Assembly (NCBI GenBank): GCA_965237685.1
Contig: CBDEGF010000004.1
Span: 264,541-328,540 of the forward strand
Reading direction: 5' to 3'
From: Candidatus Marinacidobacterales bacterium
Lineage (GTDB): Bacteria; Acidobacteriota; Vicinamibacteria; Marinacidobacterales; SMYC01
DNA length: 64,000 bases
In this document: positions 5,334 to 55,498 of the stretch, piece by piece
How positions within the stretch are numbered: the first letter of the stretch is position 1
Layout of the letters: each line of letters opens with the position of its first letter
Made by a program: the position numbers and the translations under genes
The notes under the pieces: generated by a model
The model's input: only the letters and a program-made list of their open reading frames with translations
Told to the model about the DNA's origin: nothing
Databases searched by the model: none

Positions 5334-7148
5334 TCACTCCGACTCGCGGAGCAGCTGAAGGAACACCTCGCCGTACTTGTCGAGCTTGGCGGCGCCGACG
5401 CCGGAGATCGTGGCCAGAGACGCGAGCGAGCTCGGCTTTTCGATCGCCATCTCGATCAGCGTTCGATCGTGGAAGATGACGTAGGGTGGGAGGTTCGCCT
5501 CACGGGCAAGCTCGAGCCGCTTCGCGCGCAGGGCTTCGAAGAGCTTTTCGTCTCTGAGTGACGTCAGTACCGTCGCCGTCGACCGACCCGCTTTCGGTTT
5601 TCCGCTGCCCTTGACGGGCGCTGGATCGCGGCGCAAGGTGAAGCCCGCCTCGCCTTTGAGAACCGGCCAGGCGTGCCGTGCGAGCGACAGGCCTCCGTGC
5701 TCCGGCTCGACCGCGAGCATGCCAGCCGCCACCAGCTGTCGATACACGCTCATCCACCCATTGCGATCGCGCTCTTCCCCGATGCCGAAGGTCGAGACGC
5801 TGGAATGTCCGTTGCGGCGGACACGCTCGTCGTCCTTGCCCAAGAGGACATCGGCGAGGTAGGCGGCGCCAAAGCGCTGGCCGGTGCGGTAGACGTTCGA
5901 AAGGGCTTTCTGTGCCTCGGTCGTTCCGTCGTAACTCTCGACGGGATTCAGGCAGGTGTCGCAGTTCCCGCACTCGCCCGCGTGCTCCTCGCCGAAGTAA
6001 CGCAGCAGGACTGCCCGCCGGCACTCGGCACTCTCGCAATACCCTAGAAGGCTGTTGAGCTTCAGATGCTCGATTCGCTTCCGCTCGAGCGAGGTGTCGG
6101 ACCGCTCGACGAGTTGGCGGATGAGGACCGCATCGCCGTAGCCGTAGCACATCCAGGCATCGGAGGGGAGGCCGTCACGGCCCGCCCGCCCGGTCTCCTG
6201 ATAGTAGGCCTCGAGGCTCTTCGGCAGATCCAGATGGGCGACGAAGCGCACGTCCGGCTTGTCGATACCCATGCCGAAGGCGATGGTCGCGACGATGACG
6301 ACGCCGTCCTCGTTCTGGAAGCGCTCCTGGTGCGCCTGTCGAACGCTTTTGTCGAGCCCGGCATGATAGGCGAGCGCTTCGATCCTCTCTTCGCGCAGCC
6401 ACCCCGTCGTCTGCTCGACTTTCTTCCGGCTCATGCAGTACACGATGCCGCTCTCGCCGGAATGGCGTGCCCCAAGAAAGCGCAGGAGTTGGCGGCGCGC
6501 GTTCGACTTCGGCACCACCTCGTAACGGATGTTGGGCCGGTCGAAGCCCGAGACGAACAGTCCTGCCTCGGGAAGCGCGAGATGCGACAGGATCTCGCGG
6601 CGGGTCGGCGCATCGGCGGTGGCGGTCAGCGCAATCCGTGGCACTTCCGGGTACCGCTCTTGGAGCACGTCGAGCTTCCTGTATTCGGGACGGAAGTCGT
6701 GGCCCCACTGACTGACGCAGTGGGCCTCGTCGATCGCGAAAAGAGCGATCCGGGTCCGGTCGAGCTGCTCCAGAAACGACGAGGTGACGAGCCGTTCGGG
6801 CGCGACGTAGACGAGATCGTACCTGCCGGCCACCATGTCGGTCTCGATCTGCCGCGCCTGGTGGGGCGGAAGCGTCGAGTTGACGAAGGCCGCTTCGATG
6901 CCGGCCTCGCGCAGGGCATCGACCTGGTCCTTCATCAAGGCAATCAGCGGTGAGACGACGAGACCCACGCCCTCTCGGGCCATCGCCGGGATCTGGTAGC
7001 AGAGGCTCTTGCCGCCGCCGGTCGGCATGAGCACCAGCGCATCGCCACCGGCCACGACATGATCAATGACGCTCTCCTGCAGGCTCCGAAAGCTCGAATA
7101 GCCGAAGACGGATCGCAGGATCTCGTGAGGTGTGGAGCGTGCAGACAT
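5334..7148 (-). CDS. recQ: ATP-dependent DNA helicase RecQ
   Basis: 604 aa: [44 protein letters not shown] box ([20 protein letters not shown]), Zn-binding CxxC...C, RQC and HRDC ([23 protein letters not shown]). Confidence 0.95.
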
Positions 7149-7273
7149 TCGGATCGCCAGCGTTCGCCAGTCAGTCTAGCAAACTCGACATGGCGTGCCC
7201 TGCGGCTAGGAGATAGAATTCACCGTCCCAGGCTTCCGATACGCCGCGCCCGGGCGGTGTCGGACATGTTTGC

Positions 7274-7990
7274 CGCGGCCTGGCGAAGGTGCAGCAGAAA
7301 GTCTTGACAGGCGGCTCGGCGAGCGAACTGCCCACCGAGCAGATGACTGCGGACGGGCGGATCCTCGGGACCGTTGCCTACATGTCGCCCGAGCAGACCC
7401 AGGGCAAGAATGTCGATCACCGCACCGACATCTTCTCCGCAGGCGTCGTTCTCTACGAGATGGCGACCGGTCAGAAGCCATTCAGTGGCGATTCACCCGC
7501 AACGATCCTCTCTTCCATAATCAAGGACACGCCGCGCTCGGTGACCGAGCTGAACGCCTCCGTGCCGCGCGAGCTGGGAAAGATCATTCGACGCGGCCTG
7601 GCGAAAGATCCGGACCGGCGCTACCAGAGCGCGAAGGACCTTCGCAACGAGCTGGAAGAGCTGAAGCAGGAGGTCGAATCCGGTGAGCTGCTAGACGGTG
7701 TTCCGGTCCGCGGGCAAAAGCGCGCTCCGCTCGCCGTCATCGTGGTGGGAGCGGTGCTCGTCACGGCGATCGCAACCTATCTGCTGGTCGGACGCGGTGG
7801 AGACACCGGGCCAGGTACCACCGCCCCAACGGTGTCCGGCTTCACTCAGCTCACGTCCGATCCGGGCATAGAGAGCTTCCCGAGCCTGTCGCCCGATGGC
7901 AGGACCGTCGCCTACACGCGCGACGGAGACATCTACTTGAGACGCGTCGGCGGTGAACGCGTCCTCAACCTGACCGAGGATTCGCCGGTC
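7274..7990 (+). pseudogene. Internal fragment of a PknB-type Ser/Thr kinase: C-lobe from the GLAK/APE region, TM helix, start of a TolB-like beta-propeller; both ends missing
   Basis: Kinase similarity starts abruptly at CRGLAKV...GTVAYMSPEQ...DIFSAGVVLYEMATG...DPDRRYQSAKDL, followed by the TM helix LAVIVVGAVLVTAIATYLL and then SLSPDGRTVAYTRDGDIYL. No N-lobe (glycine loop, VAIK, HRD) lies upstream; the in-frame stop is at 7214. The 3' part runs into the convergent gene. Confidence 0.55.
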
Positions 7991-8579
7991 ACGGACGAAC
8001 AGCCCGAAACACCTCATCCACGACGAAGAGAACGTTGCGCGCGGCCGCAAAGTCGTGAAGCTCGCGAAGTGCCTTTTCGCTGAGAACCTTTCCCGTCGGA
8101 TTGTGAGGCCGGTTGATCAGGAGGAGCTTCGTTCGGTCATCCACCAGCGAGCGGATCTCGTCGGGATCGATTCGAAAGCTCTCGTCGGTCCGAAGCCGAT
8201 ACGACCTCACCTCGAGGCCCAGGGTTTCGGGCAGGGCGGCGAAACCCGGATAGCCGGGCGCGGGAAGCACCACGTTCGCTCCCGGCTCGGCCACGTGGTG
8301 AAAGAGACAGAGAAGCCCCTCGGAAGCTCCGGTCACGATCTGCACATCGTCCGGCTCGACGTCGTTCCAATCTGCGACGACCTGCCGAAGCCCCTCCGTG
8401 CCGGCGGCGGGCGGGTACGTCAGTTTCGACTCCCACAGCGCCTCCTGCTCTTCGGGCGACAACAGACTCAGCAGCTCGCGCACCGACCACGCGGGCCCGC
8501 TGCTCGCGGCGAGATTCAGACGGGTTCGCCGCTCCTGATCTTCCAGCCACGCCTCGAGAGCGAACAATTTCAACTCCAT
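7989..8579 (-). pseudogene. N-terminal half (196 aa) of a class I/II PLP-dependent aminotransferase, truncated before the Schiff-base lysine
   Basis: MELKLFALEAWLEDQERR...YPPAAGTEGLRQVVADW...LLLINRPHNPTGKV...LFVVDEVF then stop. A full-length enzyme is ~380 aa. The SxxK and C-terminal domain are absent from every frame. Confidence 0.6.
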
Positions 8580-10763: not shown

Positions 10764-11166
10764 GTGGTCGTCGAAGTGGCGGTCGCGCTCACGCTCCTCG
10801 TCGGCGCGGGTCTCTTGATGCGGAGCTTCGCCGCCCTGACGTCCGTCGACCCTGGATTCGATACCCGAAACCTCCACCCACGACATTGGAATTCGAATGG
10901 CGATGGGGGCGAGCTCCGGTGACGTGCTCAAGCTGGTCATCGGTCGAGGGATGCTGCTCATGGCCCTGGGAGGGGCGATCGGGCTTGTCGCGTCGTTCGC
11001 GGCAACGCGGTTCATGGAAAGCCTGCTATTTGAGGTCGGCGCCACCGACCCAATGACCTTCGCCGCCGTCCCGCTGGTCCTCGCCGCGGTGGCGCTCGTC
11101 GCCTGCTACGTGCCCGCCCGTCGTGCCGCCGCGGTAGATCCAGTCATCGCGCTCCGCTACGAGTGA
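10764..11166 (+). pseudogene. Two pieces of an ADOP/MacB-type FtsX permease joined by an internal deletion
   Basis: Piece 1 (10764-10876) is [37 protein letters not shown], the segment starting the second periplasmic loop. Piece 2 (10883-11166, other frame) is [21 protein letters not shown]...[45 protein letters not shown], the canonical C-terminus. About 250 aa between them is absent. Confidence 0.5.
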
Positions 11167-28677: not shown

Positions 28678-29574
28678 ATGCGCCTCGTGACTCGTGGAAA
28701 CCTGGATGGTCTCACCTGTGCGGTTCTCATCAAACATGCGGAGCGCCTGGATTCGATCGAGCTCATTCACCCCCAGGACATCACCGACAGCGTCTTCGAG
28801 ATCAAAGCCGGAGATATTCTGGCCAACGTGCCCTATCACCCCGCCTGCGCCAAGTGGTTCGACCACCACTCGGCGACGCGGACCTACGAGAAGCCGCCCG
28901 AAAGGTTCGAGGGGAATTTCGGTCTCGCTCCCAGCACCGCCCGCCTGGCGTACGACTACTACCTGCACGAAAACCCCGGTCTGAAGCTCTACGAGGAGCT
29001 GGTCAAAGAGACGGATCGCTACGACAAGGCCGATCTCACGGTGGAGGACGTCACCGACCCCAAAGGCTACATCCTCCTCGGATTCACCATGGATCCTCGC
29101 ACCGGCCTCGGCGACTTCCGGAACTACTTCTTGAACCTCGTGGAGGAGCTCGCCGAGAAATCGGCAGACGAGATTCTGGGCCTCCCCGAGGTGAAGGCGA
29201 GAGTGGATCGCATCGCGGAGGAGCGCGAGAAGTTCCTCGACGCCACGCGCAAATACTCACGTGTCGTGAAGAACCTGGTCGTGACCGACCTGCGGGACGC
29301 GGTGGATCTGCCTGCCGGCAATCGCTTCCTTATTTATACGCTGTACCCGGAGACCAACGTCTCGATGCGGATTGCCTGGGGTCCGAACAAGAAGTTCGTC
29401 GTGGCCACCGTTGGCCACAGCATTTTCAACCGCACCTGCGAGGTACACGTAGGCAGCCTGCTCGCCAAGTACGGTGGCGGCGGTCACAAGGGCGCCGGCG
29501 CCGCGCCTCTCGACGCGGAGCAGGCCAACGAGCTCATTGGCGAGCTAATCCCGAAGCTCACCGAAGAGTCCTAG
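28678..29574 (+). CDS. DHH/DHHA1-family phosphoesterase (NrnA-like) - tentative
   Basis: C-terminal GGGHKGAGAA matches the DHHA1 GGGH motif. N-terminal DHH-like region is present. The stop codon TAG lies inside the MITE terminal repeat. Confidence 0.5.
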   Translation: MRLVTRGNLDGLTCAVLIKHAERLDSIELIHPQDITDSVFEIKAGDILANVPYHPACAKWFDHHSATRTYEKPPERFEGNFGLAPSTARLAYDYYLHENPGLKLYEELVKETDRYDKADLTVEDVTDPKGYILLGFTMDPRTGLGDFRNYFLNLVEELAEKSADEILGLPEVKARVDRIAEEREKFLDATRKYSRVVKNLVVTDLRDAVDLPAGNRFLIYTLYPETNVSMRIAWGPNKKFVVATVGHSIFNRTCEVHVGSLLAKYGGGGHKGAGAAPLDAEQANELIGELIPKLTEES

Positions 29575-29788
29575 TGCACGAACCCGCTGATACTGTCGGC
29601 AAACTCCAAAGTCATTTTTCGTGCTGGCAAGGCGCTCCGACGAAGTCATATCTAGATATTTCGAGCCGCCTTCCGCAGCGAGCCTGTCGAGCGGAGGGCT
29701 AGGCCGGAGGCCGAACTGCAACAAATGGAGCAACGCCGCCAGCGCGGAAAAGGACGAGGAATTTGCGGCAGGATTAGCGGGCTCGTGC
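29571..29788. mobile_element. MITE-like non-autonomous element (218 bp) with 21-bp terminal inverted repeats and a GAGTC 5-bp target duplication
   Basis: Left end is CTAGTGCACGAACCCGCTGAT. Right end is ATTAGCGGGCTCGTGCAC. Flanks are GAGTC (29566-29570) and GAGTC (29789-29793). A second, internally deleted copy in opposite orientation is at 36683-36843. Confidence 0.6.
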
Positions 29789-29793
29789 ACGAG

Positions 29794-30195: not shown

Positions 30196-30657
30196 CTAGA
30201 GAGGGTCATGCTCGGACGGCTTCACATCGTAGATCGGACCCGAGTCCGAAGAAGTCGGGGCGCCTAATCCCGAGACCTGTACGCGCAGCTCGCCCGCCTC
30301 GATGGAGTTCTTGATGCGCTTCGCGAGCCAACTTTTGACCAGGCCGCGAAAGGCCGGAACCAGCAAGAGAAAACCGAGCGCATCCGTCAGGATGCCCGGC
30401 GTCATCAGCAGGGCCCCGGCGACCAGAATCATCGCCCCATCGACCACCGCGCCGGCTGGAAGCTGCCCGCGGTTGACCTCTTCCTGCATGTGGCGAAGCA
30501 CGGCGAAGCCCTCGAGCCGTGCGAGATAGGCCCCGACGACACCGGTGATCACGATCAGGCCGAGCGTAGGAATCGTCCCAATGCGAGAGCCGACTTCAAT
30601 GAGGAGCGCGAGCTCGACCGCCGGAACGACGATGAAGAGAAGGAGCAGCTTGCCCAT
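30196..30657 (-). CDS. fxsA: FxsA-family cytoplasmic membrane protein
   Basis: MGKLLLLFIVVPAVELALLIEVGSRIG...LIVITGVVGAYLAR...ILTDALGFLLLVP matches FxsA. Confidence 0.7.
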   Translation of the reverse strand: MGKLLLLFIVVPAVELALLIEVGSRIGTIPTLGLIVITGVVGAYLARLEGFAVLRHMQEEVNRGQLPAGAVVDGAMILVAGALLMTPGILTDALGFLLLVPAFRGLVKSWLAKRIKNSIEAGELRVQVSGLGAPTSSDSGPIYDVKPSEHDPL

Positions 30658-31449: not shown

Positions 31450-31799
31450 TCCAGCTCGTTCCCCAGCTGAAGGTGCTGGTTGCCTGCGAGCCCGTCGATT
31501 TCCGCAAGGGCATCGATTCTTTGGCTTGTGTGTGCCGGCAACAGTTCCAGCTCGACCCATTCCTCGGAACGCTATTCGTTTTCCGCAACCGTTCAGGCAC
31601 GGCCCTCAAACTATTGGTCTACGACGGCCAGGGCTTTTGGTTGTGCCAGAAGCGTTTCTCGAAGGGGCGCCTGCAGTGGTGGCCGCGTCAGACGACGGAT
31701 GGCGTTGCGGCGCTACCCGCCGAGCAGTTGGCGGTGCTTATCTACAACGGACTTCCGCTGCGAGCGGGGATGGCCGAGCCGTGGCGGCGGGTCGGTTGA
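31446..31799 (+). CDS. tnpB: IS66 Orf2 (TnpB)
   Basis: MIQLVPQLKVLVACEPVDFRKGIDSLACVCRQQFQLDPFLGTLFVFRNRSGTALKLLVYDGQGFWLCQKRFSKGRLQWWP is canonical IS66 TnpB, full length (117 aa). Confidence 0.8.
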   Translation: MIQLVPQLKVLVACEPVDFRKGIDSLACVCRQQFQLDPFLGTLFVFRNRSGTALKLLVYDGQGFWLCQKRFSKGRLQWWPRQTTDGVAALPAEQLAVLIYNGLPLRAGMAEPWRRVG

Positions 31800-33290
31800 G
31801 CCTTTCCAACGTCTTCTGGTAGCTCCAAGGCAGCCACGACTCGGGTGCTGCTCTAGCGTCTCGAGCGTGCATGGAGATGTTCGTCAGATAGTGCACCGGG
31901 TCGACACCGTTTTTTACCGCGGTGCGGATCATGCTCAGGAGCACGTCGCCCACGTCGGCGCCTGCTGGGTCTTGAAGAAGAGCGAGTTCTTGCGATGCCG
32001 TTGTGAGGGCTTCAGCTCCTGCTCGACCTCGTTGTTGTCGAGGGGCACGCCCGGCACTTCGAGGAAGCGGGTTAGCCCTTGCCAGTGATTTTTGACGTAG
32101 GAAAAGGCTTTTCCAAGGCGGCTGTTGGGCTCCACCACGCGCTCGCGGAACTGCTTTTCGATCCACTCGTAGAGCGCATCCATCACCGGCCGGCTGTGTT
32201 GCTGGTGATATGCAAGCCGCGCATCGGGGGTCATGTCGCGCGTTTCGTCGTCGTTGCGGTAGATGGTCGCGATGTCCTCGAGCACCCGCTCGCAGTGTTC
32301 GGGGAAGGCTGGCTCGGCCTCGAAGAAGTAGCGGCGTGCGTGCACCATGCACTTGGCGGTAATCCGTCGCGGCGAGCGCGGTGCCATCGAGGAGGCGTCG
32401 GCCATATGGATGACATCGCTCTCCTGAACGGTGCGCTGATTCAGGAGCCGGTCCATGTTTTCGCCCGCATGCCGTCGTCCGCTCGCGTACAGGATGATCG
32501 GAGCAAGCGTGGCGTCCAAGCCGCGGGCAACAATGCCCGTGGTGAAGATGCCCGTGCGCTCGCCTTTGCCTTGAGTCAAGGTCTCGTTCTCCGCCATCAA
32601 CGTGAGGATCCGTGCGCCGGTGTCGTCACTGTGAACCAGCGGCCGGTTCGCGGCTATCGTCTCCATGTGGCGGAAGACCGGGAACACGGCATTCGCCATC
32701 GCTTCGACCCGCTCGAACTGCGTGGAGGCGGCAAACGGAACCCCCGCCCACTTTTGCCACTGCGCCAGGCGGTGGTGGGGCATGCCCATGGCGTAGCGCA
32801 ACACCGAAACGACCGCGTCCACACTCGGATGGTACTTGCTCGCCCAGGCCTGAGACGGAAGTGGCGCTGTGAACGTCTTCTGGCAACTTGCGCATCGCAG
32901 CATCTGGCGCTCGTACACCGTCGCCTGGATCGGCGGCTGAGCCTTCAGCTCCACATCCTTGTTCGCCGCATGGGTGTCGTAGAGCTTGCCCCGGCACAGT
33001 GGCTCGGGGCAGGGGCCGCTCGCCTTCAGCTCGGGATGCGAAACCGCTACGTGCTCGGCACCAGGGTAGTCCTTGGCCCCGTTGCGCCCGTGGCCCTTGT
33101 TCTTCCCTTTCCCCTTTGCCTTCGTGCGTTTCGCGCGACGTTCCGTTGTCGCCATGCCAGCGCCTCGACGATAGCGACATCGCAGCAGATGACGCACCGC
33201 CTCGAGCAGCACCGGACACGCATCCTCGGGAATCTCCCCTTTCGACAGCCGCTCTTCCAGGCGCAGGAGCTCGGCCCGCTCGACCTTCAT
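31780..33290 (-). pseudogene. IS66-family transposase TnpC with a C-terminal frameshift, in inverted orientation relative to tnpA/tnpB
   Basis: Zn-finger CPEPLCRGKL...CASCQKTF, DDE region, then PLDNNEVEQELKPSQRHRKNSLFF. After a -1 shift it continues AGADVGDVLLSMIRTAVKNGVDPVHYLTNI...ESWLPWSYQKTLERL (IS66 C-terminal signature). It ends with no stop, abutting the tnpB 3' end. Confidence 0.75.
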
Positions 33291-34201
33291 CGCGAAACGC
33301 CGAGCTCTCGGCGAAACTCACGCACCAGCGGATACACCAAGCATGTTTTCACCGCTTCGGCTTTTCTCTTGTGCCGGTCCATCCGGCCCCGGCCCGAAGT
33401 CACTCCCACCTCCACCCAGTTCGCTGCCAGATAGCACGTCCCCTCGTAACGCTCCCTCTCCACAAACGTCTCGAGCAACACCGGCCTCACCCCGTAGGCT
33501 TCCTCCCAGTCATCGACCACCACTCGCGCTGCCAACGACAGCACGTGACTCGCGAGGCCTTTGATGGAAAGCCACGGCAGGATCAGGAACCGACTGTTGT
33601 TGACCACCCGGGGAAGGTTCTTCTGCCGCGTTGCGTCATCCCAACCGATGAAGCCGTCACGCGCCTGAAGCCACCGCGCCGCCGAGGAGAACTGCACGCA
33701 CCCACAGAGCTCCCGCCGAGGATTCGACATCCAGACCAAGTACCGCAGGTGCGCGCCAAAGGCCACCTTGTGGCCCAGGTAGTGGTAACGCGCGACCAGT
33801 TCCCTCCATAGCGCTCGCTCCTCAGCGTTCGCCACCAAGCCCAGCATCACCGGAGCGACGTCCGATAGCTTGCCCTCACGCCGTGGCCGCTCGCGACCAG
33901 CCTTCGTGTAGTGGATGCTCGTCGGTCCGCGGCGCCGCTGCTCGTGACGCGGGGGCAACGTCACCAGCCCCTTCGCTTCGACAACCTCCAGGTACTCGTA
34001 GCATTCCCGGGTCTTGAGATTGCCGTTCCGACGAACCCACCCCAGGCCCTCACAGATCGTGCGCGCCAGCTCGTGCCGGGACAGACCACACGTGGCGATG
34101 ATCTCCGTCAGCACGCTCCATTCCTCGGCGGTCACGGTCGTGCCGCAAAAGGTGGGTCGCTTGGCTGCGGTGTCGAGTGCAGCGTTTCCTGTCTGGGTCA
34201 C
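33287..34201 (-). CDS. Conserved 304-aa IS-associated accessory protein (wHTH-like N-terminus + HYLG / NNSRFLILPW C-terminal domain; possibly DUF4338-like), translationally coupled (ATGA) to TnpC
   Basis: GGGAGG RBS precedes the GTG start. LSRHELARTICEGLGW...ECYEYLEVVEAKGLVTLPP; ARYHYLGHKVAFGAHLRYLVW...DGFIGWDDATRQKNLPRVVNNSRFLILPWL. The same gene (5'-truncated) precedes TnpC in the second copy at 53459-53989. Confidence 0.6.
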   Translation of the reverse strand: MTQTGNAALDTAAKRPTFCGTTVTAEEWSVLTEIIATCGLSRHELARTICEGLGWVRRNGNLKTRECYEYLEVVEAKGLVTLPPRHEQRRRGPTSIHYTKAGRERPRREGKLSDVAPVMLGLVANAEERALWRELVARYHYLGHKVAFGAHLRYLVWMSNPRRELCGCVQFSSAARWLQARDGFIGWDDATRQKNLPRVVNNSRFLILPWLSIKGLASHVLSLAARVVVDDWEEAYGVRPVLLETFVERERYEGTCYLAANWVEVGVTSGRGRMDRHKRKAEAVKTCLVYPLVREFRRELGVSR

Positions 34202-34304
34202 TGTTTTCCTCCCAGCCTGAGATTACACAGTCAGCCAGCGTTTGTCCAGTCCTTTTTTCCCTCTCTCTCTGCCCGCGAGAAAAACGACACACCCGGCGTT
34301 CAGC

Positions 34305-36682: not shown

Positions 36683-36843
36683 CTAGTGCACGAACCCGCT
36701 AATCCTGCCGCAAATTCCTCGTCCTTTTCCGCGCTGGCGGCGTTGCTCCTCCTCGAAATATCTAGATATGACTTCGTCGGAGCGCCTTGCCAGCACGAAA
36801 AATGACCTTGGAATTTGCCGACAGTATCAGCGGGTTCGTGCAC
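36683..36843. mobile_element. Second MITE-like copy (161 bp, inverted orientation, about 60 bp internally deleted), near-perfect 5-bp target duplication TAGTG / TAGTC
   Basis: CTAGTGCACGAACCCGCTAAT...ATCAGCGGGTTCGTGCAC, with extra partial TIR copies at 36661-36682 and 36853-36872. Confidence 0.6.
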
Positions 36844-36911
36844 TAGTCCTGTCGACAACGGGTTCGTGAACAATCTCGTCCTAGCTGCGTACGGGACAAA
36901 CATGATGCTCA

Positions 36912-37187
36912 TTGCGCATGGCGATGGGAGCACGCCCGGCAGACGTGTTGAAGCTCATCGTCGGTCAGGGAGCCTGGCTCGTCGCGGCGGGAGTGCTGTT
37001 GGGGCTGGCCGGTGCGTTTACCGTCACCCGGTGGATGGCCAGCCTGTTGTTCGAAGTCGGCACCGCCGACCCGATCACGTTCTTCGGCCTTGCGCTACCC
37101 TTGGCCGTCGTCGCGATCGCCGCCTGCTACCTGCCGGCGCGACAGGCGACGCGGGTGGACTCGATGCTGTCGCTTCGCTGCGAGTAG
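36912..37187 (+). pseudogene. C-terminal 91-aa remnant of a second ADOP/MacB-type FtsX permease
   Basis: RMAMGARPADVLKLIVGQGAWLVAAGVLLGLAGAFTVTRWMASLLFEVGTADPITFFGLALPLAVVAIAACYLPARQATRVDSMLSLRCE; nothing of the rest of the ~800-aa protein is upstream. Confidence 0.5.
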
Positions 37188-37190
37188 AGC

Positions 37191-38246
37191 TTAGCGCTCC
37201 AGCTCTTCGTCTATCACGGCGCGAAACGCCTCGAACGGCTGCGCTCCGGAGAGAAAGCGGCCGTTGATGAAGAAAACAGGCGTCGCGTTGAGGCCGAGCT
37301 CCTCGGCGTTCTGGTAGTCCTCCTGAACCGCCTCACGAAAGGTCCCTGAGCTCAGGCAACTCTTGAAGAGGTCGACGTCCAGCGCGAGCTCCACCGCGAA
37401 ACGCTCGAGGTTGTCCGGCGTCAGCGCACGCTGGTTCTCGAAGATCTTGTCGTGGTACTCCCAGAACCTTCCTTGAGCATGAGCGCACTGGGCAGCCTCG
37501 GCGGCGGGAAACGCCTGTGGATGATTGGGGAGCGGGAAGTCTCGATAGACGATGCGGACCTTGTCGCGATACGTCTCTCTGACCTGCCGGAGGGTCGGAC
37601 CGACCCTCGCGCAGTACGGTCATTGAAAATCCGAATACTCGACGATCGTGACGTCGGCATCCGGAGGTCCTTTCGTGGGCTCGTTGCTCGCGACCGTGAT
37701 CGGCATACGTGGCGGGTCGAGAGAAATGTCCACGTCGGAGTTCTCGCGAAGCTCTTCCAGAAAAGCTTGTCGGACCGTGTTCGTTTGCTGGGCCTCCAGC
37801 AACTGCCGTATCTGAGGACCGATCCGCTCGAGGGGCTGGCCTCCGACGCGCGCCTTGTTGATATTGAAGAAATCCTCGACGTCGGCGTCCGTGACCGGCT
37901 TGACTTTGCTTGTGATCTCCTGGACCAGGAGCTCATCCTTCGTGACGCCACGCGCAGCCGCCTCCTGATTCAGAAGAACGTCGGCAACGAGCTTCTCGAG
38001 AGCCTGACGTCGCGCGTTGTAGAGCTCCTGATAGGCGGTCATGTTGGCAGTCAGCGCTTTTTCGTCCACCTGCTCGAGGGTGATGGACTCGCCATCGACC
38101 TGGGCGACGACGTTCTCGCTCGAATCCGAACGCGTCTGCTCCGCGCTAGCCGAGGGCGGGCGATCGCTGCAGGCCAGCACGGCAAAGAGCGAGGCGGTGA
38201 GCACGACAGTGTCCCGCCAGGCAAGCTCGTTGAGCATTGATTTCAT
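37191..38246 (-). CDS. Periplasmic SurA_N-like + DsbA-like thiol:disulfide oxidoreductase with in-frame TGA at the first Cys of CxxC (UPYC): candidate selenoprotein (alternatively a nonsense pseudogene)
   Basis: N-terminal signal anchor [26 protein letters not shown]. The thioredoxin domain reads ...[74 protein letters not shown]...[20 protein letters not shown] is at 37620-37622 (complement). The downstream 143 codons are intact and conserved. Confidence 0.6.
37584..37614 (-). promoter_or_regulatory. bSECIS-like mRNA stem-loop downstream of the UGA
   Basis: mRNA: UGA CCGUA CUGC GC GAGGGUC GGUCC GACCCUC CG GCAG. A 4-bp lower stem, 2x2 internal loop, 7-bp G/C upper stem and 5-nt apical loop GGUCC. 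The upper stem begins 11 nt after the UGA. Confidence 0.45.
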
Positions 38247-38427
38247 CTCCTTGGAATGGACGCTCCAGGTCCCAGCCTAGCACAAGTAAGTCCAGAGCCG
38301 ACACCGACCTCCGGCCATTTGGAGGCTACCACCTGTCTTCGGGCTCGTGTATACTTGGGGCAATTGCCGTTCCCGAAGCCCACGTCGCGTCCCGTACTCG
38401 TGAGCCTCACCGGCTGGAGAGAGAAAA

Positions 38428-38737
38428 TATGAAGATATACGTCGGAAACCTGAACTTTGCTTCCACCGAGGGAGCTCTCCGCGATCTATTCGGCGAGCAC
38501 GGGGAGGTCGAGGATGTCCGCATCGTGACCGATCGCGACACCGGTCGCTCGCGCGGATTCGGCTTCGTCGCCATGCCCGATCACGACAACGCGCAGGCAG
38601 CGATCGAAGCGCTCAACGGAAGAGAGCTCGACGGCCGAACCCTCAAAGTCAACGAGGCTCGCCCCCGCGAAGACCGAGGTGGAGGTGGAGGTGGAGGTGG
38701 AGGTGGAGGCCGAGGACGCGGTCGCGGCCGCTACTGA
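38428..38737 (+). CDS. Glycine-rich RNA-binding protein (RRM domain)
   Basis: [22 protein letters not shown] (RNP2) ... RGFGFVAM (RNP1) ... ([19 protein letters not shown]) tail encoded by a GGTGGA tandem repeat at 38680-38720. Confidence 0.85.
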
Positions 38738-38984: not shown

Positions 38985-39470
38985 TCATTTCCCCTCCGCG
39001 AGCTTTTCCAGAGTCTTTCCCGTCGCACGAAAAATGGTCCACCCGTCCATAGGGGTGGCGCCCAGATTCTTGTAGAAGTCGATGGCCGGCTCGTTCCAGT
39101 CGAGCACCGACCACTCGAGCCTTCCGCAGCCCCGCTCCGTCGCGATCTGCGCCAATCGTCTCAGAAGCGCCCCCCCGATGCCTCTCCCCCTTGCTCGCTC
39201 CCGAACGTAGAGATCTTCCAGGTAGATGCCCTGGCGGGCCAGAAACGTCGAGTAATTGTGGAAGAAGAGAGCGAATCCCTCGGGCTCACCCTCCCACTCG
39301 GCGATGAGCACCTCCGCCCCCCGGCGCTCCCCGAAGAGCGTCCGCCCAAGCTGCTCTTCGGTGGCAATCACTTCGTGGGACAGCCGCTCATACTCTGCGA
39401 GCTCTTTGATCAGACTCAGGATCAACGGGGCGTCCTCGACGCCCGCGACGCGAATGGTAGCCTGGGTCAT
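38985..39470 (-). CDS. GNAT-family N-acetyltransferase
   Basis: IRVAGVEDAPLILSLI...RGRGIGGALLRRLAQIATERGCGRLEWSVLDWNEPAIDFYKNLG contains the Q/RxxGxG/A motif. Confidence 0.8.
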   Translation of the reverse strand: MTQATIRVAGVEDAPLILSLIKELAEYERLSHEVIATEEQLGRTLFGERRGAEVLIAEWEGEPEGFALFFHNYSTFLARQGIYLEDLYVRERARGRGIGGALLRRLAQIATERGCGRLEWSVLDWNEPAIDFYKNLGATPMDGWTIFRATGKTLEKLAEGK

Positions 39471-39511
39471 GGTCCGGACTATACTCTACCGCGGCAGTCG
39501 GGGGAGACTTG

Positions 39512-39810
39512 TCGTGCCCGGCTTTGCGACCATCCGGGAGCTGGAGGCACTGGTGATCACCGGTGTGCCGGCGTTCGGTGCGCTCGAGGCGGGCACACGA
39601 AATCCCGCCCGCTACTTCGGCCTCGACGATTCGTTTGGCACGGTCTCCGTCGGCAAACGCGCCGACTTGTTGCTGGTGGAAGGCAATCCTCTCGATGACG
39701 TCAGCAACGTAAGGAAGCTGGCGGGCGTCATGATTGCGGGGCGCTGGTTGTCCGCGGACGAGATAAGGAGCGGCCTCGAAAAGTTCGCGACGCCGTCGAC
39801 GTCGAACTGA
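39512..39810 (+). pseudogene. C-terminal about 100 aa remnant of an amidohydrolase
   Basis: VPGFATIRELEALVITGVPAFGALEAGTRNPARYFGLDDSFGTVSVGKRADLLLVEGNPLDDVSNV... is the conserved C-terminal stretch of amidohydrolases. No catalytic core is upstream. Confidence 0.5.
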
Positions 39811-41942: not shown

Positions 41943-42272
41943 TTCCACAGCTTCTCGACAGCCCAGCCAGCAAGTGCCTGGCCCTTACCCACACGATTTG
42001 AACCGCTCAGCGGAGGTTCTCCACAACTTTCCCACCGGGCCAAACACTTGTGCTCACAGGCGTTCCACCGCTTTATCCACAGATTTCGCACATGTTCCAG
42101 GGCGGTGTAAATCCCCTACGATTTATGGGACATTGCCCACGCCTTCCGCTTAGTCTACGCCTAACCAGTTGAAACAATGAGAGTTCCACCAAACCCTCCA
42201 GAGCACCGGGTGGCGTGAATGTTGCACCCCTGTCTTTTGCGGATCCTGCTTCGAGAGGGATCGGATTTGCCT

Positions 42273-44661
42273 ATGGGGAATGTGCTTCGTGGTCTCAAGC
42301 GCTGGCTCGGCCTGTGGACTGCGTCGCTCTCGCGTCAGCTCTGGCTCTGGGCAAGCCCCGCCGCCGGTGTACTGGCCGGCGCTGCCATCTACGGATGGTC
42401 GAATCGTGCGCCGCCGGTTCTGTTCGCGAGCCTCCTGGCGACAGGTATCGGCCTCGCGTTCCTGCTGTTCGCCCTGCGTCGCGGCATGATCGCTCCGCTG
42501 GAAGAGCTTCACGAAGGGGTGGCGGTGCTGCGACGCCACGGCGCAAAGCTGCCGTCTGAGCTGCCACTTCGACGCTCGGATGAGCTCGGACGGCTGGCCC
42601 GTGAGGTGGCGCTCCTGGCCGGGGATCGAAACGTCAGCGAGACTCGCCGTCAACAGGCGGTCGATCGCCTGAAGGCGATCCTCGGTAGTCTGCCCGACGC
42701 GCTGCTTCGGGTCGAACGAAGCGGGATCGTGCTCGACGCCAGCTGGCCCGACGACTTTCCACTGGTGGCAGCGGGATCGGTGGAAGCGGGCCGACCCTTC
42801 GAGGCACTCTTTCCGGCGGTGCTCTCACAAAAACTCGTTGAAGCGCTCGAGACGGTGGACGCCGACAACCCCCAGCGATTCGAGTACGAGACGGTGATTG
42901 ACGGCGAGTCGCGTTGCTTCGACATCCGGGCGTTCGCGAGTGGGGACGCGGAGGCACTCATCATCCTGGAGAACGTCACGCCGCTGAAGCAATCCGCGGC
43001 CACGCAGGACCGGCTCCGTTCCATCCTCGACGCCACCAAGGATCTGGTGGTGACGACCGACCTCGAGGGGACCGTTCATTTCGTGAACTCGGCGGGCAAG
43101 CGGCTCCTCAGGATCCAGGACGACCGGGGCTTCAATCTCCAGAAAGGAGATTTTCTGCCCTCGTGGGCTCGCGACCAGGTCTTTGGCACCGCGGTGCCGG
43201 CGGCTCTCAAAGACGGGCTCTGGGAAGGTGAATCCGCGCTCGTGTCGACGGACGAAATCGAGATTCCGGTCTCATTGATGGTCCTCGCGCACCGCACCGT
43301 TCACGGCAACGTGGACTACCTTTCCTTCGTGGCCCGGGATCTCAGCGAGCGGAAGCGTCTGGACGACGACCTGCGCTACCTCAAGGACTACGACCCGCTG
43401 ACGTCGCTCTACAGTCGCCAGCGTTTCACCGAAGAGCTCGGACGGGAGCTGTCCAAGGCGACACATTTGGGCTCCCGCGGAGCGGTTCTCCTCATCGATC
43501 TCGACGATTTCAAGATCATCAACGACAGCCTGGGGCACGGTGCCGGGGATCAGCTTCTGACCGGCACCGCCGCTGTGATCCGCAACACCATTCGCGCCTC
43601 GGACATGATGTCGCGGCTCGGCGGCGACGAGTTCGCCATCCTGTTTCGCGAGGCGGAAGAAGAGCGACTGCGTCAGGTCTCGGAGCGACTCCTGAACGCG
43701 ATCCGTGAGCATTCGATCAGCATTGGTGACCGCCAGGTCGGCGTGACCGCAAGCGCAGGCATCGCGGTCTTTCCGGACAATGGAAGCACCGCCGAAGAGA
43801 TTCTCGCGCGCGCCGATCAGGCCATGTACCGCGCCAAGGAAAAGGGGCGGGACGGGTACGTCTTCTACGAGCCCGACGAGGGATGGGAGGCGGACGTCCA
43901 GTCACGGCTGTCCGGCGAAAAGAGGATTCGCCAGGCGCTGGCGGAGGATCGTTTTCTCCTCTACGCACAACCCATTCTCGATTCGAAGACCAATCAGATC
44001 AGCCAGTTCGAGATCCTGCTGCGCATGACGGACGAGGAGAACCGGATCCTGCCGCCAGCGGCGTTCCTCAGTACCGCAGAGCGCTTCGGTCTGATCCAGT
44101 CGGTTGACCGGTGGGTCGTAAGGCACGCTATTCTCCTCATGGCAGAGCAGCATCGTGCCGGAAATCCGGTACACCTCTCGGTCAACCTCTCCGGCAAATC
44201 ACTCGCCGACACCGAGCTGCTCTCGATCATCGAGTCGGAGCTCGAGGCGAACGAGGTGCCTCCGTCCACGCTGACGCTCGAGATCACCGAGACGAGCGCG
44301 ATCTCCGACACCAATCGGGCGCAGGCTTTTGCGAACGGCCTGAAGCGAATCGGCTGCCGTCTGGCGCTCGACGACTTCGGGGTGGGCTTCTCGTCGCTCT
44401 ACCACCTCAAGCACCTTCCGGTGGACTTCCTGAAGATCGATGGGAGCTTCATCCGCGAGCTTCCCGACAGCACCGTCGACCAGCACCTCGTCCGGGCCAT
44501 GGGTCGAGGTGGCGCGAGCGCTTGGTAAACGAACGGTGGCCGAGTTCGTCGGGAACGAGGAGACCGTGCGCCTGCTACAGGAGTTCGGCGTCGACTTTCT
44601 TCAGGGCTATCACATTGGCAAGCCAATGGCGGTCGAAGAGACTATCGGGAAGAAGCACTAG
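42273..44661 (+). pseudogene. Membrane-anchored PAS-GGDEF-EAL c-di-GMP signalling protein with a frameshift in a G-run (about 44501-44503) near the EAL C-terminus
   Basis: Two TM helices, PAS region, GGDEF (RLGGDEFAIL), EAL (QPILD...EILLRM...). Frame 1 ends ...QHLVRAMGRGGASAW*. The next frame continues VEVARALGKRTVAEFVGNEETVRLLQEFGVDFLQGYHIGKPM (EAL C-terminal conserved block). Confidence 0.65.
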
Positions 44662-45827: not shown

Positions 45828-47243
45828 GTGATGGCTAGAATCCCCGCGCATAAGTCGATGAAGCACGTTCCTTCGTCAGCCACCGTCGGTATCGCCGACA
45901 CTGTCACCGGAATGCGCAGCGACGGGCTCGATGTCGTCGACTTCTCCGCGGGACGTGCTTCCGAGCACACGCCCGACTACATCGTGCAGGCCGCCATCGC
46001 TGCACTCGAACAGGGCGACACACACCAGACGATGGCTCGAGGCAACAACGGAGCTCCGGCGTGCCTGCGCGGCGAAGCTCGCGAGAGAGAACGGGCTCGA
46101 AGCCGACCCGGAGACGGAGATCCTCGTCACGATGGGCGCCAAACAAGGGCTGGCGCTCGCTGTTCTCAGTACGCTCGAGTCCGGCGACGAGGTCCTGGTG
46201 GAGGATCCGGGCTTCGTCAGCTACCAGCCCGCGATCTAGTACGCGGGTGGCGTGGCAGTTCCCATTCCGCTCACGCGGGAGACCGGTTTTCGGTGGTCGG
46301 GTGTAGCACTACAGAACGCGGTAACCGAGCGCACGCGCGCCCTGATCCTCTGCTCGCCGCAGAATCCAACCGGCGCCGTGCACACGGAAGAGGACCTGGA
46401 CGCGATCGCCTCCGTCGCACGGGAGCGCGACCTCCTCGTGTTCGCCGACGAGACGTACGAGCAGATCATCTGGGGTGAGCGCCGCCATCTCTCGATCGCC
46501 ACTCGCGAGGGGATGCGCGAACGGACCGTCAACCTGATGGGGCTCACAAAAAGCTTTTCCATGGGCGGCTGGCGCGTGGGGTTCGCCGTCGCCGCACCGT
46601 CCGTCCTTTCCGCCATGGTCACCGCGCAGCAGCACCTCGTCACCTGCCCCAGCTCGTTCGCCCAGGCGGGAGCGGTCGTCGCCCTGCGCGACGCGCCGCG
46701 TCCCGAGCTCCGTGCCCTCTGGGACGACTGGGAGAAGCGGTGTCGCCGCGTGGTACAGGCTCTCGATGACATCAAAGGCGTATCCTGTGAGATGCCCGAG
46801 GGCGGTTTCTACGCCTGGGCAGCCGTTCGGCCAGTGGCTCCGAAGATTCGCCGAGCTCGCGAACGTCGGTCATCACCCGGGACGGCAAGCCATTCATGAG
46901 CTTCGGTGTCATGGGCGGTGACGTCCAGCCTCAGATGCATGCGGCCATCGTGATGAAGATGGTGGATTTCGGAATGAACCTTCAGGAAGCGGGCGACGCT
47001 CCCCGTTGTATTCACTCCGGCTCATCCCAGCCGACCGGTGAAACCATGACCGACGGAGGCGAGGTTCACGTCGAGTCCGGGATCTCTCGAGACACCGTTC
47101 AGGCGCTCACGCAAAAGGGCCACCGCATCTCAGCGGATGTCGTCGCCTTTGGCGGCTACCAGGCGATCTGCCTCGACCGGGAGACGCAGGTCTATTCCGG
47201 CACGTCGGAGTCGCGAAAGGACGGCCACGCGGCCGGGTATTGA
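45828..47243 (+). pseudogene. Mosaic: aspartate/aromatic-type aminotransferase (a frameshift about 46040, in-frame TAG 46237-46239, a second frameshift near 46830-46870, C-terminus truncated) fused at about 46870 to the C-terminal about 125 aa of a gamma-glutamyltransferase
   Basis: Aminotransferase pieces: TTELRRACAAKLARENGLEADPETEILVTMGAKQGL...FVSYQPAI-TAG-YAGGVAVPIPL...CSPQNPTGAV...LTKSFSMGGWRVGF...GGFYAW. GGT piece: VITRDGKPFMSFGVMGGDVQPQMHAAIVMKMVDFGMNLQEAGDAPRCIHS...AFGGYQAI...SESRKDGHAAGY*. Confidence 0.55.
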
Positions 47244-48312: not shown

Positions 48313-49314
48313 TTAACAGGCCGGCGGGCTGAGGGCTCCTTCGGCGAAGAGCGCCGGCTCGCCGCCGGTGTGCAGAAAGACCACCGTCTCGTCCTTCCCG
48401 ATGCGCCCCTCGGAAATCTCCTCCATAAGGCCGGCCATCACCTTCCCCGTGTAGTTCTGATCCAGGAAGACGCCCTCGGTGCGGGCCACGAGCCGAATGG
48501 CCTCGATGCCTTCCCGGGTCGGTATCCCGTAGCCCGCTCCGATGAACCCGCCGCGGACGACGACATCCTCCTCGCTCACCTCGATCTCACGCCCCACGAT
48601 TCCGGCGGCCTCACGTGCGAACTGCTGGATGCGTGCGACACACTCGTCGACCGGCCGGCTCACCGTGATGCCCAGCAGTCGGTAGGGGGCGGAAAAGATC
48701 TTGCTGCCGGCGAGAAGGCCGGCGTGGGTGCCACAGGCGCCTGTCGCGAGCACCACCCAGTCAAGGTGCACGTCGAGCTCCTCGAGCTGGCGCGCCATCT
48801 CTCGAACACACAGGACGTAGCCAACGCAGCCGAGCCCACTGGTACCTCCCCGGGGAACGACGTAGGGGCGCCGGCCGCTGCGGCGGAGCTCCTCCGCGAC
48901 GTCGAGGATCCCGCTGTCCACGGTGGAGCGATCGGCCTCGTTTGTGAAGCGGATCTCCGCACCCAGGATCTCGTCCAGGAGCAGGTTCCCCTCGATCCTC
49001 TCCGGGCGCGAGTCGTGGAGGACACCGACCACGTCCAGCCCGGCCACGCGGGCGGCCGCGGCGGTAGCCCGAACGTGGTTCGACTGAGGACCCGCACCGG
49101 TGACGATCGTGTCCGCCTTCTCACCGAGGGCCGCCGCCAGGTAGTACTCCAGGCCGCGGACCTTGTTGCCTCCGAACCCGAACCCGATCAAATCGTCTCG
49201 TTTGAAGAAGATACGGGGCCCGCCCAGCCGCTTCGAGAGATACCGGGCCTCCACGAGGGGGGTCGGGAGAACGGCGAGCGGGAACTTCTCGGGCACGCAA
49301 AGGGCATCGGGCAT
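48313..49314 (-). CDS. PLP-dependent D-cysteine desulfhydrase / ACC deaminase family enzyme
   Basis: LPTPLVEARYLSKRLGGPRIFFKRDDLIGFGFGGNKVRGLEYYL (PLP lysine in GGNKVR), ...GGTSGLG..., tryptophan-synthase-beta fold. Start could also be 49359. Confidence 0.7.
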   Translation of the reverse strand: MPDALCVPEKFPLAVLPTPLVEARYLSKRLGGPRIFFKRDDLIGFGFGGNKVRGLEYYLAAALGEKADTIVTGAGPQSNHVRATAAAARVAGLDVVGVLHDSRPERIEGNLLLDEILGAEIRFTNEADRSTVDSGILDVAEELRRSGRRPYVVPRGGTSGLGCVGYVLCVREMARQLEELDVHLDWVVLATGACGTHAGLLAGSKIFSAPYRLLGITVSRPVDECVARIQQFAREAAGIVGREIEVSEEDVVVRGGFIGAGYGIPTREGIEAIRLVARTEGVFLDQNYTGKVMAGLMEEISEGRIGKDETVVFLHTGGEPALFAEGALSPPAC

Positions 49315-53458: not shown

Positions 53459-55498
53459 CTGCCTTTGGCGCGCACCTGCGGTACTTGGTCTGGATGTCGA
53501 ATCCTCGGCGGGAGCTCTGTGGGTGCGTGCAGTTCTCCTCGGCGGCGCGGTGGCTTCAGGCGCGTGACGGCTTCATCGGTTGGGATGACGCAACGCGGCA
53601 GAAGAACCTTCCCCGGGTGGTCAACAACAGTCGGTTCCTGATCCTGCCGTGGCTTTCCATCAAAGGCCTCGCGAGTCACGTGCTGTCGTTGGCAGCGCGA
53701 GTGGCTTTCCATCAAAGGCCTCGCGAGTCACGTGCTGTCGTTGGCAGCGCGAGTGGTGGTCGATGACTGGGAGGAAGCCTACGGGGTGAGGCCGGTGTTG
53801 CTCGAGACGTTTGTGGAGAGGGAGCGTTACGAGGGGACGTGCTATCTGGCAGCGAACTGGGTGGAGGTGGGAGTGACTTCGGGCCGGGGCCGGATGGACC
53901 GGCACAAGAGAAAAGCCGAAGCGGTGAAAACATGCTTGGTGTATCCGCTGGTGCGTGAGTTTCGCCGAGAGCTCGGCGTTTCGCGATGAAGGTTCGAGCG
54001 GGCCGAGCTCCTGCGCCTGGAAGAGCGGCTGTCGAAAGGGGAGATTCCCGAGGATGCGTGTCCGGTGCTGCTCGAGGCGGTGCGTCATCTGCTGCGATGT
54101 CGCTATCGTCGAGGCGCTTGGCATGGCGACAACGGAACGTCGCGCGAAACGCACGAAGGCAAAGGGGAAATGGAAGAACAAGGGCCACGGGCGCAACGGG
54201 GCCAAGGACTACCCTGGTGCCGAGCACGTAGCGGTTTCGCATCCCGAGCTGAAGGCGAGCGGCCCCTGCCCCGAGCCACTGTGCCGGGGCAAGCTCTACG
54301 ACACCCATGCGGCGAACAAGGATGTGGAGCTGAAGGCTCAGCCGCCGATCCAGGCGACGGTGTACGAGCGCCAGATGCTGCGATGCGCAAGTTGCCAGAA
54401 GACGTTCACAGCGCCACTTTCGTCTCAGGCCTGGGCGAGCAAGTACCATCCGAGTGTGGACGCGGTCGTTTCGGTGTTGCGCTACGCCATGGGCATGCCC
54501 CACCACCGCCTGGCGCAGTGGCAAAAGTGGGCGGGGGTTCCGTTTGCCGCCTCCACGCAGTTCGAGCGGGTCGAAGCGATGGCGAATGCCGTGTTCCCGG
54601 TCTTCCGCCACATGGAGACGATAGCCGCGAACCGGCCGCTGGTTCACAGTGACGACACCGGCGCACGGATCCTCACGTTGATGGCGGAGAACGAGACCTT
54701 GACTCAAGGCAAAGGCGAGCGCACGGGCATCTTCACCACGGGCATTGTTGCCCGCGGCTTGGACGCCACGCTTGCTCCGATCATCCTGTACGCGAGCGGA
54801 CGACGGCATGCGGGCGAAAACATGGACCGGCTCCTGAATCAGCGCACCGTTCAGGAGAGCGATGTCATCCATATGGCCGACGCCTCCTCGATGGCACCGC
54901 GCTCGCCGCGACGGATTACCGCCAAGTGCATGGTGCACGCACGCCGCTACTTCTTCGAGGCCGAGCCAGCCTTCCCCGAACACTGCGAGCGGGTGCTCGA
55001 GGACATCGCGACCATCTACCGCAACGACGACGAAACGCGCGACATGACCCCCGATGCGCGGCTTGCATATCACCAGCAACACAGCCGGCCGGTGATGGAT
55101 GCGCTCTACGAGTGGATCGAAAAGCAGTTCCGCGAGCGCGTGGTGGAGCCCAACAGCCGCCTTGGAAAAGCCTTTTCCTACGTCAAAAATCACTGGCAAG
55201 GGCTAACCCGCTTCCGCGAAGTGCCGGGCGTGCCCCTCGACAACAACGAGGTCGAGCAGGAGCTGAAGCCCTCACAACGGCATCGCAAGAACTCGCTCTT
55301 CTTCAAGACCCAGCAGGCGCCGACGTGGGCGACGTGCTCCTGAGCATGATCCGCACCGCGGTAAAAAACGGTGTCGACCCGGTGCACTATCTGACGAACA
55401 TCTCCATGCACGCTCGAGACGCTAGAGCAGCACCCGAGTCGTGGCTGCCTTGGAGCTACCAGAAGACGTTGGAAAGGCTCAACCGACCCGCCGTTGTC
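53459..55498. mobile_element. Second, degenerate copy of the accessory-ORF + IS66 TnpC module in + orientation, inverted relative to copy 1
   Basis: About 98% identical to 31780-33764. Accessory gene is 5'-truncated (starts at FGAHLRYLVW) and carries a 52-bp tandem duplication (53649-53700 = 53701-53752). TnpC has two single-T insertions near its 5' end plus the same C-terminal frameshift. It ends at the same position as copy 1. Confidence 0.7.

Follow-up and report, generated by a model that had tools for sequence, protein, structure and literature searches.

A predicted selenocysteine codon in a SurA_N-DsbA gene of a Candidatus Marinacidobacterales bacterium, split in two by annotation

Results

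The locus and its reading frame

The DNA analyzed in this work (hereafter, the window) is the stretch of 64,000 nucleotides between positions 264,541 and 328,540 of contig CBDEGF010000004.1 from a Candidatus Marinacidobacterales bacterium; the gene in question lies on its minus strand and is predicted to code for a DsbA-like selenoprotein, with selenocysteine (Sec) at the first position of the redox motif. The translation of the window revealed that the minus-strand frame from 38246 to 37191 is broken only once, by a TGA at 37622-37620, and that it stays open for 142 further codons past this triplet, up to a TAA at 37193-37191. The parts of the gene are the following:

37191..38237, minus strand: complete predicted selenoprotein gene, with SurA_N-like and DsbA/Thioredoxin_4 domains and the active site U-P-Y-C
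38247..38252, minus strand: Shine-Dalgarno-like AAGGAG, inferred from the sequence, preceding the ATG at 38237 by 9 nt
38169..38180, minus strand: lipobox-like V-L-A-C, read from the translation, closing the hydrophobic N-terminal segment
37896..38135, minus strand: SurA_N-like helical (chaperone-type) domain, PF13623, residues 38-117
37620..37622, minus strand: in-frame UGA, predicted Sec codon, first position of the UxxC redox motif
37206..37682, minus strand: DsbA/Thioredoxin_4 domain extending across the UGA and including the conserved T-P (cis-Pro loop)

A first-pass annotation of this DNA had assigned the interval 37191-38246 to the gene. The frame stands as proposed, but the start does not, since the second ATG, at 38237, is the likelier one, with the ATG at 38246 as the alternative: the former sits 9 nt after the AAGGAG motif, and a database entry (P0021) begins at MLNEL, i.e., at the same start. 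Counted from this likely start, the gene comprises 348 codons. The N-terminal segment ends in ..LFAVLAC/SD, which is compatible with the broad lipobox pattern derived from [LVI][ASTVI][GAS]C (a crude regular-expression check over the relatives was uninformative), and the product is predicted to be exported and lipid-anchored.

The domain composition was assessed by probing Pfam with the translated frame, with Cys put in the place of the stop. The N-terminal half matches SurA_N_2 (PF13623) at 8.9e-07, with 29.3 bits, just above the gathering score of 28.5, and SurA_N_3 (PF13624) scores just under its own gathering cut-off. The match to Thioredoxin_4 (PF13462) covers residues 189-347 at 4.8e-35 (121.6 bits; cut-off, 23.2), and that to DSBA (PF01323) reaches 5.3e-24 (85.5 bits; cut-off, 25.6), so that the DsbA-like character which the first-pass annotation attributed to the frame behind the TGA was borne out. 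The DsbA structure 4pwp of the PDB matches at 2.1e-22. T322 and P323 are invariant in the alignment of the full-length homologues, and on the basis of what is known of the family we take the proline of this T-P loop to be cis.

The redox motif U-P-Y-C spans positions 37622-37611. The multialignment of 18 full-length homologues confirmed that the TGA occupies the position of the catalytic cysteine, the first Cys of C-P-x-C, which does not vary among them; the homologues of about 347 aa all read SDFQ-C-P[FY]-C there, unlike the closest relatives (see below). It had also been anticipated that such a gene would be mis-annotated as two open reading frames (ORFs); indeed, the public entries cut the locus into a 205-aa hypothetical protein and a 67-aa DSBA fragment, the former being the exact database entry P0021, which is present in several assemblies.

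The hairpin after the UGA

The transcript is predicted to fold, directly after the UGA, into a stem-loop resembling a bacterial selenocysteine insertion sequence (SECIS), with the following parts:

37584..37614, minus strand: SECIS-like stem-loop, fold CUGC-GC-GAGGGUC-GGUCC-GACCCUC-CG-GCAG
37614-37611 with 37587-37584, minus strand: lower stem CUGC/GCAG, starting 5 nt after the UGA
37608-37601 with 37597-37590, minus strand: upper stem GAGGGUCG/CGACCCUC, 8 bp, starting 11 nt after the UGA
37601-37597, minus strand: apical GGUCC, a GUC triloop closed by G-C

This is the fold, with the same stem distances and with G and U in the loop, that the first-pass annotation had described, and the folding calculations reproduced it. 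The minimum free energy (MFE) of the 71-nt fold is -28.1 kcal/mol (z = -2.7), and one out of 200 dinucleotide shuffles was equally good. The 48-nt stretch after the TGA has an MFE of -24.5, and a downstream 48-nt MFE of -24.5 or lower was found at only 7 of the 1608 TGA trinucleotides of the window (0.4%); an uninterrupted stem of at least 8 bp obeying the SECIS loop and spacing rules follows only 2.5% of the window TGAs.

According to the published bacterial SECIS model, the apical loop has 3-9 nt, the upper stem 4-16 bp, a G falls in the first two loop positions, the loop follows N1-G-[G/U]-N-N2, the distance from UGA to loop is 16-37 nt, and the MFE threshold is -7.5 kcal/mol (PMC13188914). 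The hairpin agrees with all four constraints of this model (loop GUC or GGUCC, stem of 8 bp, placement of the G, and spacing together with MFE): the UGA-to-loop distance is 18-19 nt, inside the range of the consensus, the loop G-G-U-C-C suits the loop pattern, and the MFE lies far under the threshold. As in the bacterial SECIS consensus (bSECISearch model), the stem-loop is part of the coding region, follows the UGA without delay, and has a small loop with G and then U. In the minimal SECIS element of Escherichia coli fdhF, the upper stem likewise starts 11 nt after the UGA; unlike in this experimental prototype, no bulged U comparable to U17 is seen in the upper stem of the window hairpin.

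The alignment of the Sec forms (see below) revealed that the named structure is paired in 88.8% of the cells, compared to 29-47% in slid controls. Between the window and its syntenic orthologue L082, only two substitutions fall in paired positions, and both still pair (C-G to U-G and G-C to G-U). In two further loci (L101 and L155), several codons and residues are changed, yet a stem with the same GGUC loop is kept. Across the relatives, the hairpin sequence GGGUCGGUCCGACCC is nearly frozen because it also encodes R-V-G-P-T.

Conservation of the TGA and of the frame behind it

A second strain (L001, ENA contig_135), 99.6% identical to the window, keeps the TGA, although the two differ within 6.6 kb by nine single-nucleotide polymorphisms (SNPs) and by an indel of 18 nt; one of the SNPs, 37 nt upstream of the TGA, is synonymous. 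The syntenic orthologue L082, 72% identical, keeps the TGA as well and has in common with the window the order lactate permease, acetyltransferase, RRM protein, and selenoprotein gene. Four additional long-contig loci (L083-L086) carry the TGA, and all five loci from L082 to L086, fetched for three truncated entries, have 142-144 open codons past it. As regards the species-representative genomes, the two best loci listed both have TGA, one being from a metagenome-assembled genome (MAG) of Acidobacteriota, at 55% identity, and the other from a MAG of Phycisphaeraceae, at 50%; TGA is also found in a paralogue in a Planctomycetota MAG; the other 90 sites among the matches listed are TGC or TGT.

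When the N-terminal half was used as a protein query, 76 of the best 120 matches were fragments of about 200 aa, all of them ending in ...S[DE][FY]Q. We then scanned metagenomes with the pattern [DE][FY]Q-TG[A/C/T]-P[FY]C-x-RVGP and pooled the sites with the loci already fetched, obtaining 123 unique sites, 85 with TGA (the Sec forms) and 38 with a Cys codon (the Cys forms). The TGA sites come from at least three phylum-level lineages, and at least 141 open codons follow the TGA in all 64 loci with enough sequence.

The region downstream of the TGA evolves under purifying selection: the ratio of nonsynonymous to synonymous divergence (dN/dS) is about 0.10 (0.091/0.903 for the window and L082; 0.014/0.143 for L083 and L085), and it is lower behind the TGA than in front of it. 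The conserved TGA, the open frames, and the low dN/dS together argue that the region behind the UGA is translated in the window lineage and in its relatives.

Two observations concern the evolution of this position. In the Planctomycetota MAG JACQFE010000040 (L011), a TGA copy at 779 and a TGC copy at 2008 stand in tandem. Moreover, one homologue among the 237 database proteins (P0001-P0237) has Trp at the first position of a CPxC-like motif ([DE][FYW][QE]-W-P-x-C), which could reflect a change from TGA to TGG.

Codon usage over the hairpin in Sec and Cys forms

The RVGP peptide is common to the 85 Sec and the 38 Cys forms, and the codons that specify it differ sharply between them. Arginine is encoded by AGR in 80 of the 85 Sec forms against 3 of the 38 Cys forms (Fisher 7e-22), glycine by GGT in 84 against 14 (Fisher 1e-14), and the exact 15-mer core GGGTCGGTCCGACCC is present in 64 Sec forms and in none of the Cys forms. 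In the genes of the window, AGG makes up only 6% of the Arg codons and GGT only 14% of the Gly codons. Furthermore, the last nucleotide of the Arg codon lies opposite that of the Thr codon in the stem; the two form G-C in 65 cases, G-U in nine, and A-U in six, and A-C never occurs. The changes in the stem are thus compensatory, and the hairpin is under constraint at the RNA level. It is this comparison at the codon level, restricted to forms that share one peptide, that decides whether the hairpin is a SECIS or a by-product of the peptide.

The Cys orthologues with the same architecture and length (P0036, P0039, P0048, and P0080; about 347 aa; 49-55% identity) share the SDFQ-C-P[FY]C-ARVGPT surroundings, but with TGC or TGT; they use ordinary codons over RVGPT (CGC, GGC/GGN, and ACG) and have only incidental or relic hairpins.

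Some of the Cys forms deserve a separate mention. In three Myxococcota multi-domain DsbA proteins (L078, L079, and L080), a 6-bp hairpin arises from the codons CGC GTC/GTG GGT/GGC CCG/CCC ACG, whose third positions complement each other across the stem; the hairpin may be due to chance, given GC-rich codon use, or represent the relic of a former SECIS. A TGT form (L089, JGI contig Ga0114931_10119186, match 407-441) retains the Sec-type codons AGG GTC GGT CCG ACT CTC and the full hairpin, as if Sec had recently been replaced by Cys and the SECIS had stayed behind as a fossil.

Discussion

The proposed selenoprotein and its decoding

The pairing of TGA and Cys at one alignment position, the conservation of the TGA, the purifying selection behind it, the fit to the SECIS model, and the codon constraint strongly support, at the level of sequence comparison, the suggestion of the first-pass annotation that this gene codes for a selenoprotein. 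Its product is very probably a thiol:disulfide oxidoreductase, predicted to be exported and probably lipid-anchored, in which a SurA_N-like domain is joined to a DsbA/DsbG thioredoxin fold and Sec acts as the nucleophilic first residue of the CxxC motif.

In principle, we can depict the following scenario. At the UGA at 37622-37620, the hairpin starting 5 nt downstream would recruit SelB-GTP-Sec-tRNA(Sec), Sec would be inserted in place of termination, and translation would run on for 142 codons. Once in the envelope, the Sec/Cys pair would cycle between selenol/thiol and selenenylsulfide, thereby oxidizing, reducing, or isomerizing the disulfides of client proteins. Both the binding of SelB with Sec insertion in this organism and the export, lipidation, and redox role of the protein are deduced from the features described above.

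TGA is otherwise an ordinary stop in this DNA, ending many full-length genes of the window, e.g., the RecQ gene at 5334-7175, which matches full-length RecQ and whose nearest named relatives are from Vicinamibacteria (70-71% identity); the genetic code is therefore standard. An alternative code, with UGA read as Trp or Gly, was considered and ruled out on the same grounds. A scan of the window for in-frame TGA codons with a coding signal on both sides returned only four weak candidates (63908, 62071, 59286, and 16353), none of them in a redox context, and its filter was so strict that it missed the DsbA site itself.

Several results weigh against the selenoprotein interpretation. In Cys homologues with the RVGPT peptide, a weaker hairpin folds at the same place (L078-L080), because the codons for V-G-P-T are intrinsically palindromic. 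The structure is thus partly a by-product of the peptide and the hairpin alone is not proof; in addition, Sec and Cys forms overlap in their pooled MFEs, so that the MFE alone does not discriminate between them. RNAalifold, run on all 85 Sec sequences, did not return the hairpin and gave an unrelated weak structure instead. On that same alignment, the named hairpin evaluates to -15.4 kcal/mol, compared to -3.6 kcal/mol for the structure returned, and RNAalifold recovered the hairpin with the 78 sequences that pair throughout (seven outliers being left out) and in random subsamples of 15; the failure appears to be due to a few outlier sequences that disqualify stem pairs. The counts of TGA forms do not represent independent events, given that these forms are mutually related. 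As to the Sec machinery, neither a tRNA of any kind, tRNA-Sec included (ARAGORN), nor any Rfam match at gathering thresholds was found in the 64-kb window, and no tRNA-Sec or SelD-like sequence was retrieved from the 207 fetched sequences (1.02 Mb) by ARAGORN and tblastn, the query for the latter being an E. coli SelD sequence. The null result for the window is uninformative, since the tRNA-Sec may lie anywhere in some 4 Mb; to our knowledge, no bacterial SECIS model is to be expected in Rfam. The Sec trait has been reported in Acidobacteriota (PMC1794560). Lastly, pseudogenes are not rare in the window, where decayed genes are found.

Alternative explanations

The presence of those decayed genes makes the worry of the first-pass annotation, i.e., that many genes nearby are disrupted and that this one might be too, a reasonable one. 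According to such a scenario, a TGC-to-TGA nonsense mutation would have turned the gene into a pseudogene like its neighbors, which would agree with the several truncated or frameshifted genes in the vicinity and with the two ORFs into which gene callers split the locus. It is contradicted by the occurrence of the same TGA at 85 unique orthologous sites, by the intact downstream frame in each of the 64 testable loci, by the dN/dS of about 0.10 behind the TGA, and by the finding that each of the other in-frame stop junctions of the window marks the ordinary end of one gene. That a substitution error in sequencing or assembly turned TGC into TGA might be suspected because the source looks, judging by the contig names, like a long-read metagenome assembly, and because a homopolymer frameshift is visible at 44501-44503; the independently assembled second strain, nine SNPs apart, carries the same TGA, however, as do assemblies from many other projects and technologies. 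The second strain and the TGAs of the orthologues thus exclude, for practical purposes, both of the possibilities that the first-pass annotation had left open, with an extremely small probability remaining for the mutation and a negligible one for the error.

The remaining two explanations accept the TGA as genuine. If the Sec machinery had been lost in this lineage, the UGA would now terminate translation, only the SurA_N-like fragment would be made, and the rest would be a recent relic. Gene decay within the window and the frequent loss of the Sec trait in bacteria (PMC1794560) speak for this; two strains nonetheless retain an intact UGA, an intact hairpin, and all 142 codons behind them, and the only substitutions in paired hairpin positions with respect to L082 keep the pairing although dS is about 0.9. 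We consider such a loss unlikely. Alternatively, the UGA could be recoded to Cys or to another residue by a selC* tRNA-Cys opal suppressor or by an allo-tRNA suppressor. A selC* tRNA-Cys that mimics tRNA-Sec has been described together with candidate nonsense-suppressor allo-tRNAs in Acidobacteria, the latter being reported in Deltaproteobacteria as well (PMC5389517); on the other hand, selC* was found in other, anaerobic phyla (PMC5389517), no such tRNA is present within the window, TGA is a normal stop elsewhere in it, and a hairpin of SECIS type that is so strictly conserved speaks for decoding through SelB. Recoding by a suppressor is, in our opinion, very improbable.

Comparison with known selenoproteins and relevance

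UxxC selenoproteins of the DsbA-like (PF01323) and DsbG-like (COG1651) kinds were described between 2005 and 2008 (PMC1088965, PMC1794560, PMC2398784) and are listed in a 2026 review (PMC13188914). Sec insertion at the UGA of the window gene would leave the understanding of how selenoproteins work unchanged. The best NCBIfam match (2.6e-37) is NF041057, the 'Rcas_1661 family thioredoxin-like (seleno)lipoprotein', which is DsbG-like and of the COG1651 type (Zhang and Gladyshev, 2005-2008). The two have in common the DsbA/DsbG-type thioredoxin fold, the UxxC motif with Sec first, the predicted lipoprotein nature, and the existence of Cys forms. The score of the window protein, 128.7 bits, falls short of the curated equivalog cut-off of 190, however, and the match is confined to profile positions 83-246 of 247, its SurA_N-like N-terminal half falling outside the model; it is therefore related to this family but not a member of it. 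The DsbA-like selenoprotein form 1 (PF01323) resembles it in the PF01323 match, in the UxxC motif, in a SECIS that directly follows the UGA, and in having Cys homologues that are widespread (PMC1088965, PMC2398784). The DsbA-like families from the Sargasso Sea and GOS ('DsbA 1/2'), which we compared by description, were defined on COG2761/FrnE-type, mostly marine sequences. The published descriptions of the DsbA-like selenoprotein families do not mention a SurA_N fusion (PMC1088965, PMC2398784).

The letter U is absent from all the 237 database proteins fetched, and a full-text literature search for selenoprotein together with PF13462 gave no match; in the collections searched, the clade seems to lack any annotation as selenoprotein. 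The gene is part of this large clade of SurA_N-DsbA proteins with predicted Sec, which annotation has mis-split. It is possible, and we propose it tentatively as something short of probable, that this clade represents a distinct, undescribed family of SurA_N-DsbA seleno-lipoproteins that are exported, occur widely among the Acidobacteriota and Planctomycetota of soil and sediment, and appear in all the database entries seen as a hypothetical protein and a separate DSBA fragment. In such a family, the 15-nt core GGGUCGGUCCGACCC and the R-V-G-P-T peptide would be mutually frozen, and the Cys relatives would record Sec-to-Cys conversions in their relic hairpins (e.g., L089).

As far as annotation is concerned, the two fragments should be replaced by one 348-codon selenoprotein gene, and the same split error affects at least 76 protein clusters of a public collection. 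If the selenoprotein interpretation is correct, it would imply that the source, a Vicinamibacteria-like acidobacterium, and many soil Acidobacteriota and Planctomycetota decode Sec and use it in a disulfide oxidoreductase of the envelope; these organisms would, in turn, depend on a supply of selenium for the oxidative folding of their proteins. From the evolutionary viewpoint, the 85 Sec and 38 Cys forms with the same local peptide represent a clean natural data set on how a single stretch can act as a SECIS while also encoding a conserved peptide.

Genomic surroundings

Partial Pfam profiles revealed the following gene remnants in the window:

7217-8083: C-terminal half of a kinase
10840-11166: C-terminal end of an FtsX protein
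36906-37187: C-terminal end of a second FtsX protein
39256-39810: C-terminus of an amidohydrolase
46240-46899: middle piece of an aminotransferase
46791-47243: C-terminus of a gamma-glutamyltranspeptidase

The decay consists of truncations and indels. The genome of the window seems more eroded than that of L082, since the latter has a full-length gamma-glutamyltranspeptidase gene (547 aa). Four junctions, at 1479-1481, 11164-11166, 30196-30198, and 48313-48315, were considered as possible nonsense codons and proved to be ordinary ends of separate genes.

A PAS-GGDEF-EAL gene is split into two parts, 42219-44528 (EAL profile positions 2-195) and 44434-44661 (EAL positions 196-236), by a +1 G homopolymer frameshift: a GGG run stands at 44501-44503, where GG restores the frame (..VRAM-VEVARALGK..). 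This frameshift may be either real or a long-read homopolymer error.

Two inverted copies of an IS66-family element (transposase PF03050), at 31785-33763 and 53461-55493, are about 2 kb long and 99.7-100% identical. An ORF adjoining them matches the Druantia DruA domain (PF14236) and is complete-looking at 33287-34222 and a fragment at 53642-53989. Moreover, a pair of inverted repeats at 29571-29793 and 36683-36846, about 95 and 67 bp long and with 97-98% identity, flanks a 7-kb segment with FxsA/NfeD-like genes, one IS66 copy, and an amidohydrolase gene, which may represent a composite mobile unit; the right-hand repeat lies just upstream of the FtsX fragment adjoining the selenoprotein gene. 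Finally, the 18-nt length difference between the window and L001 is in-frame, falls at 38692-38709 in the Gly/Arg-rich tail of the neighboring gene for the RRM RNA-binding protein, and corresponds to a change in repeat number.

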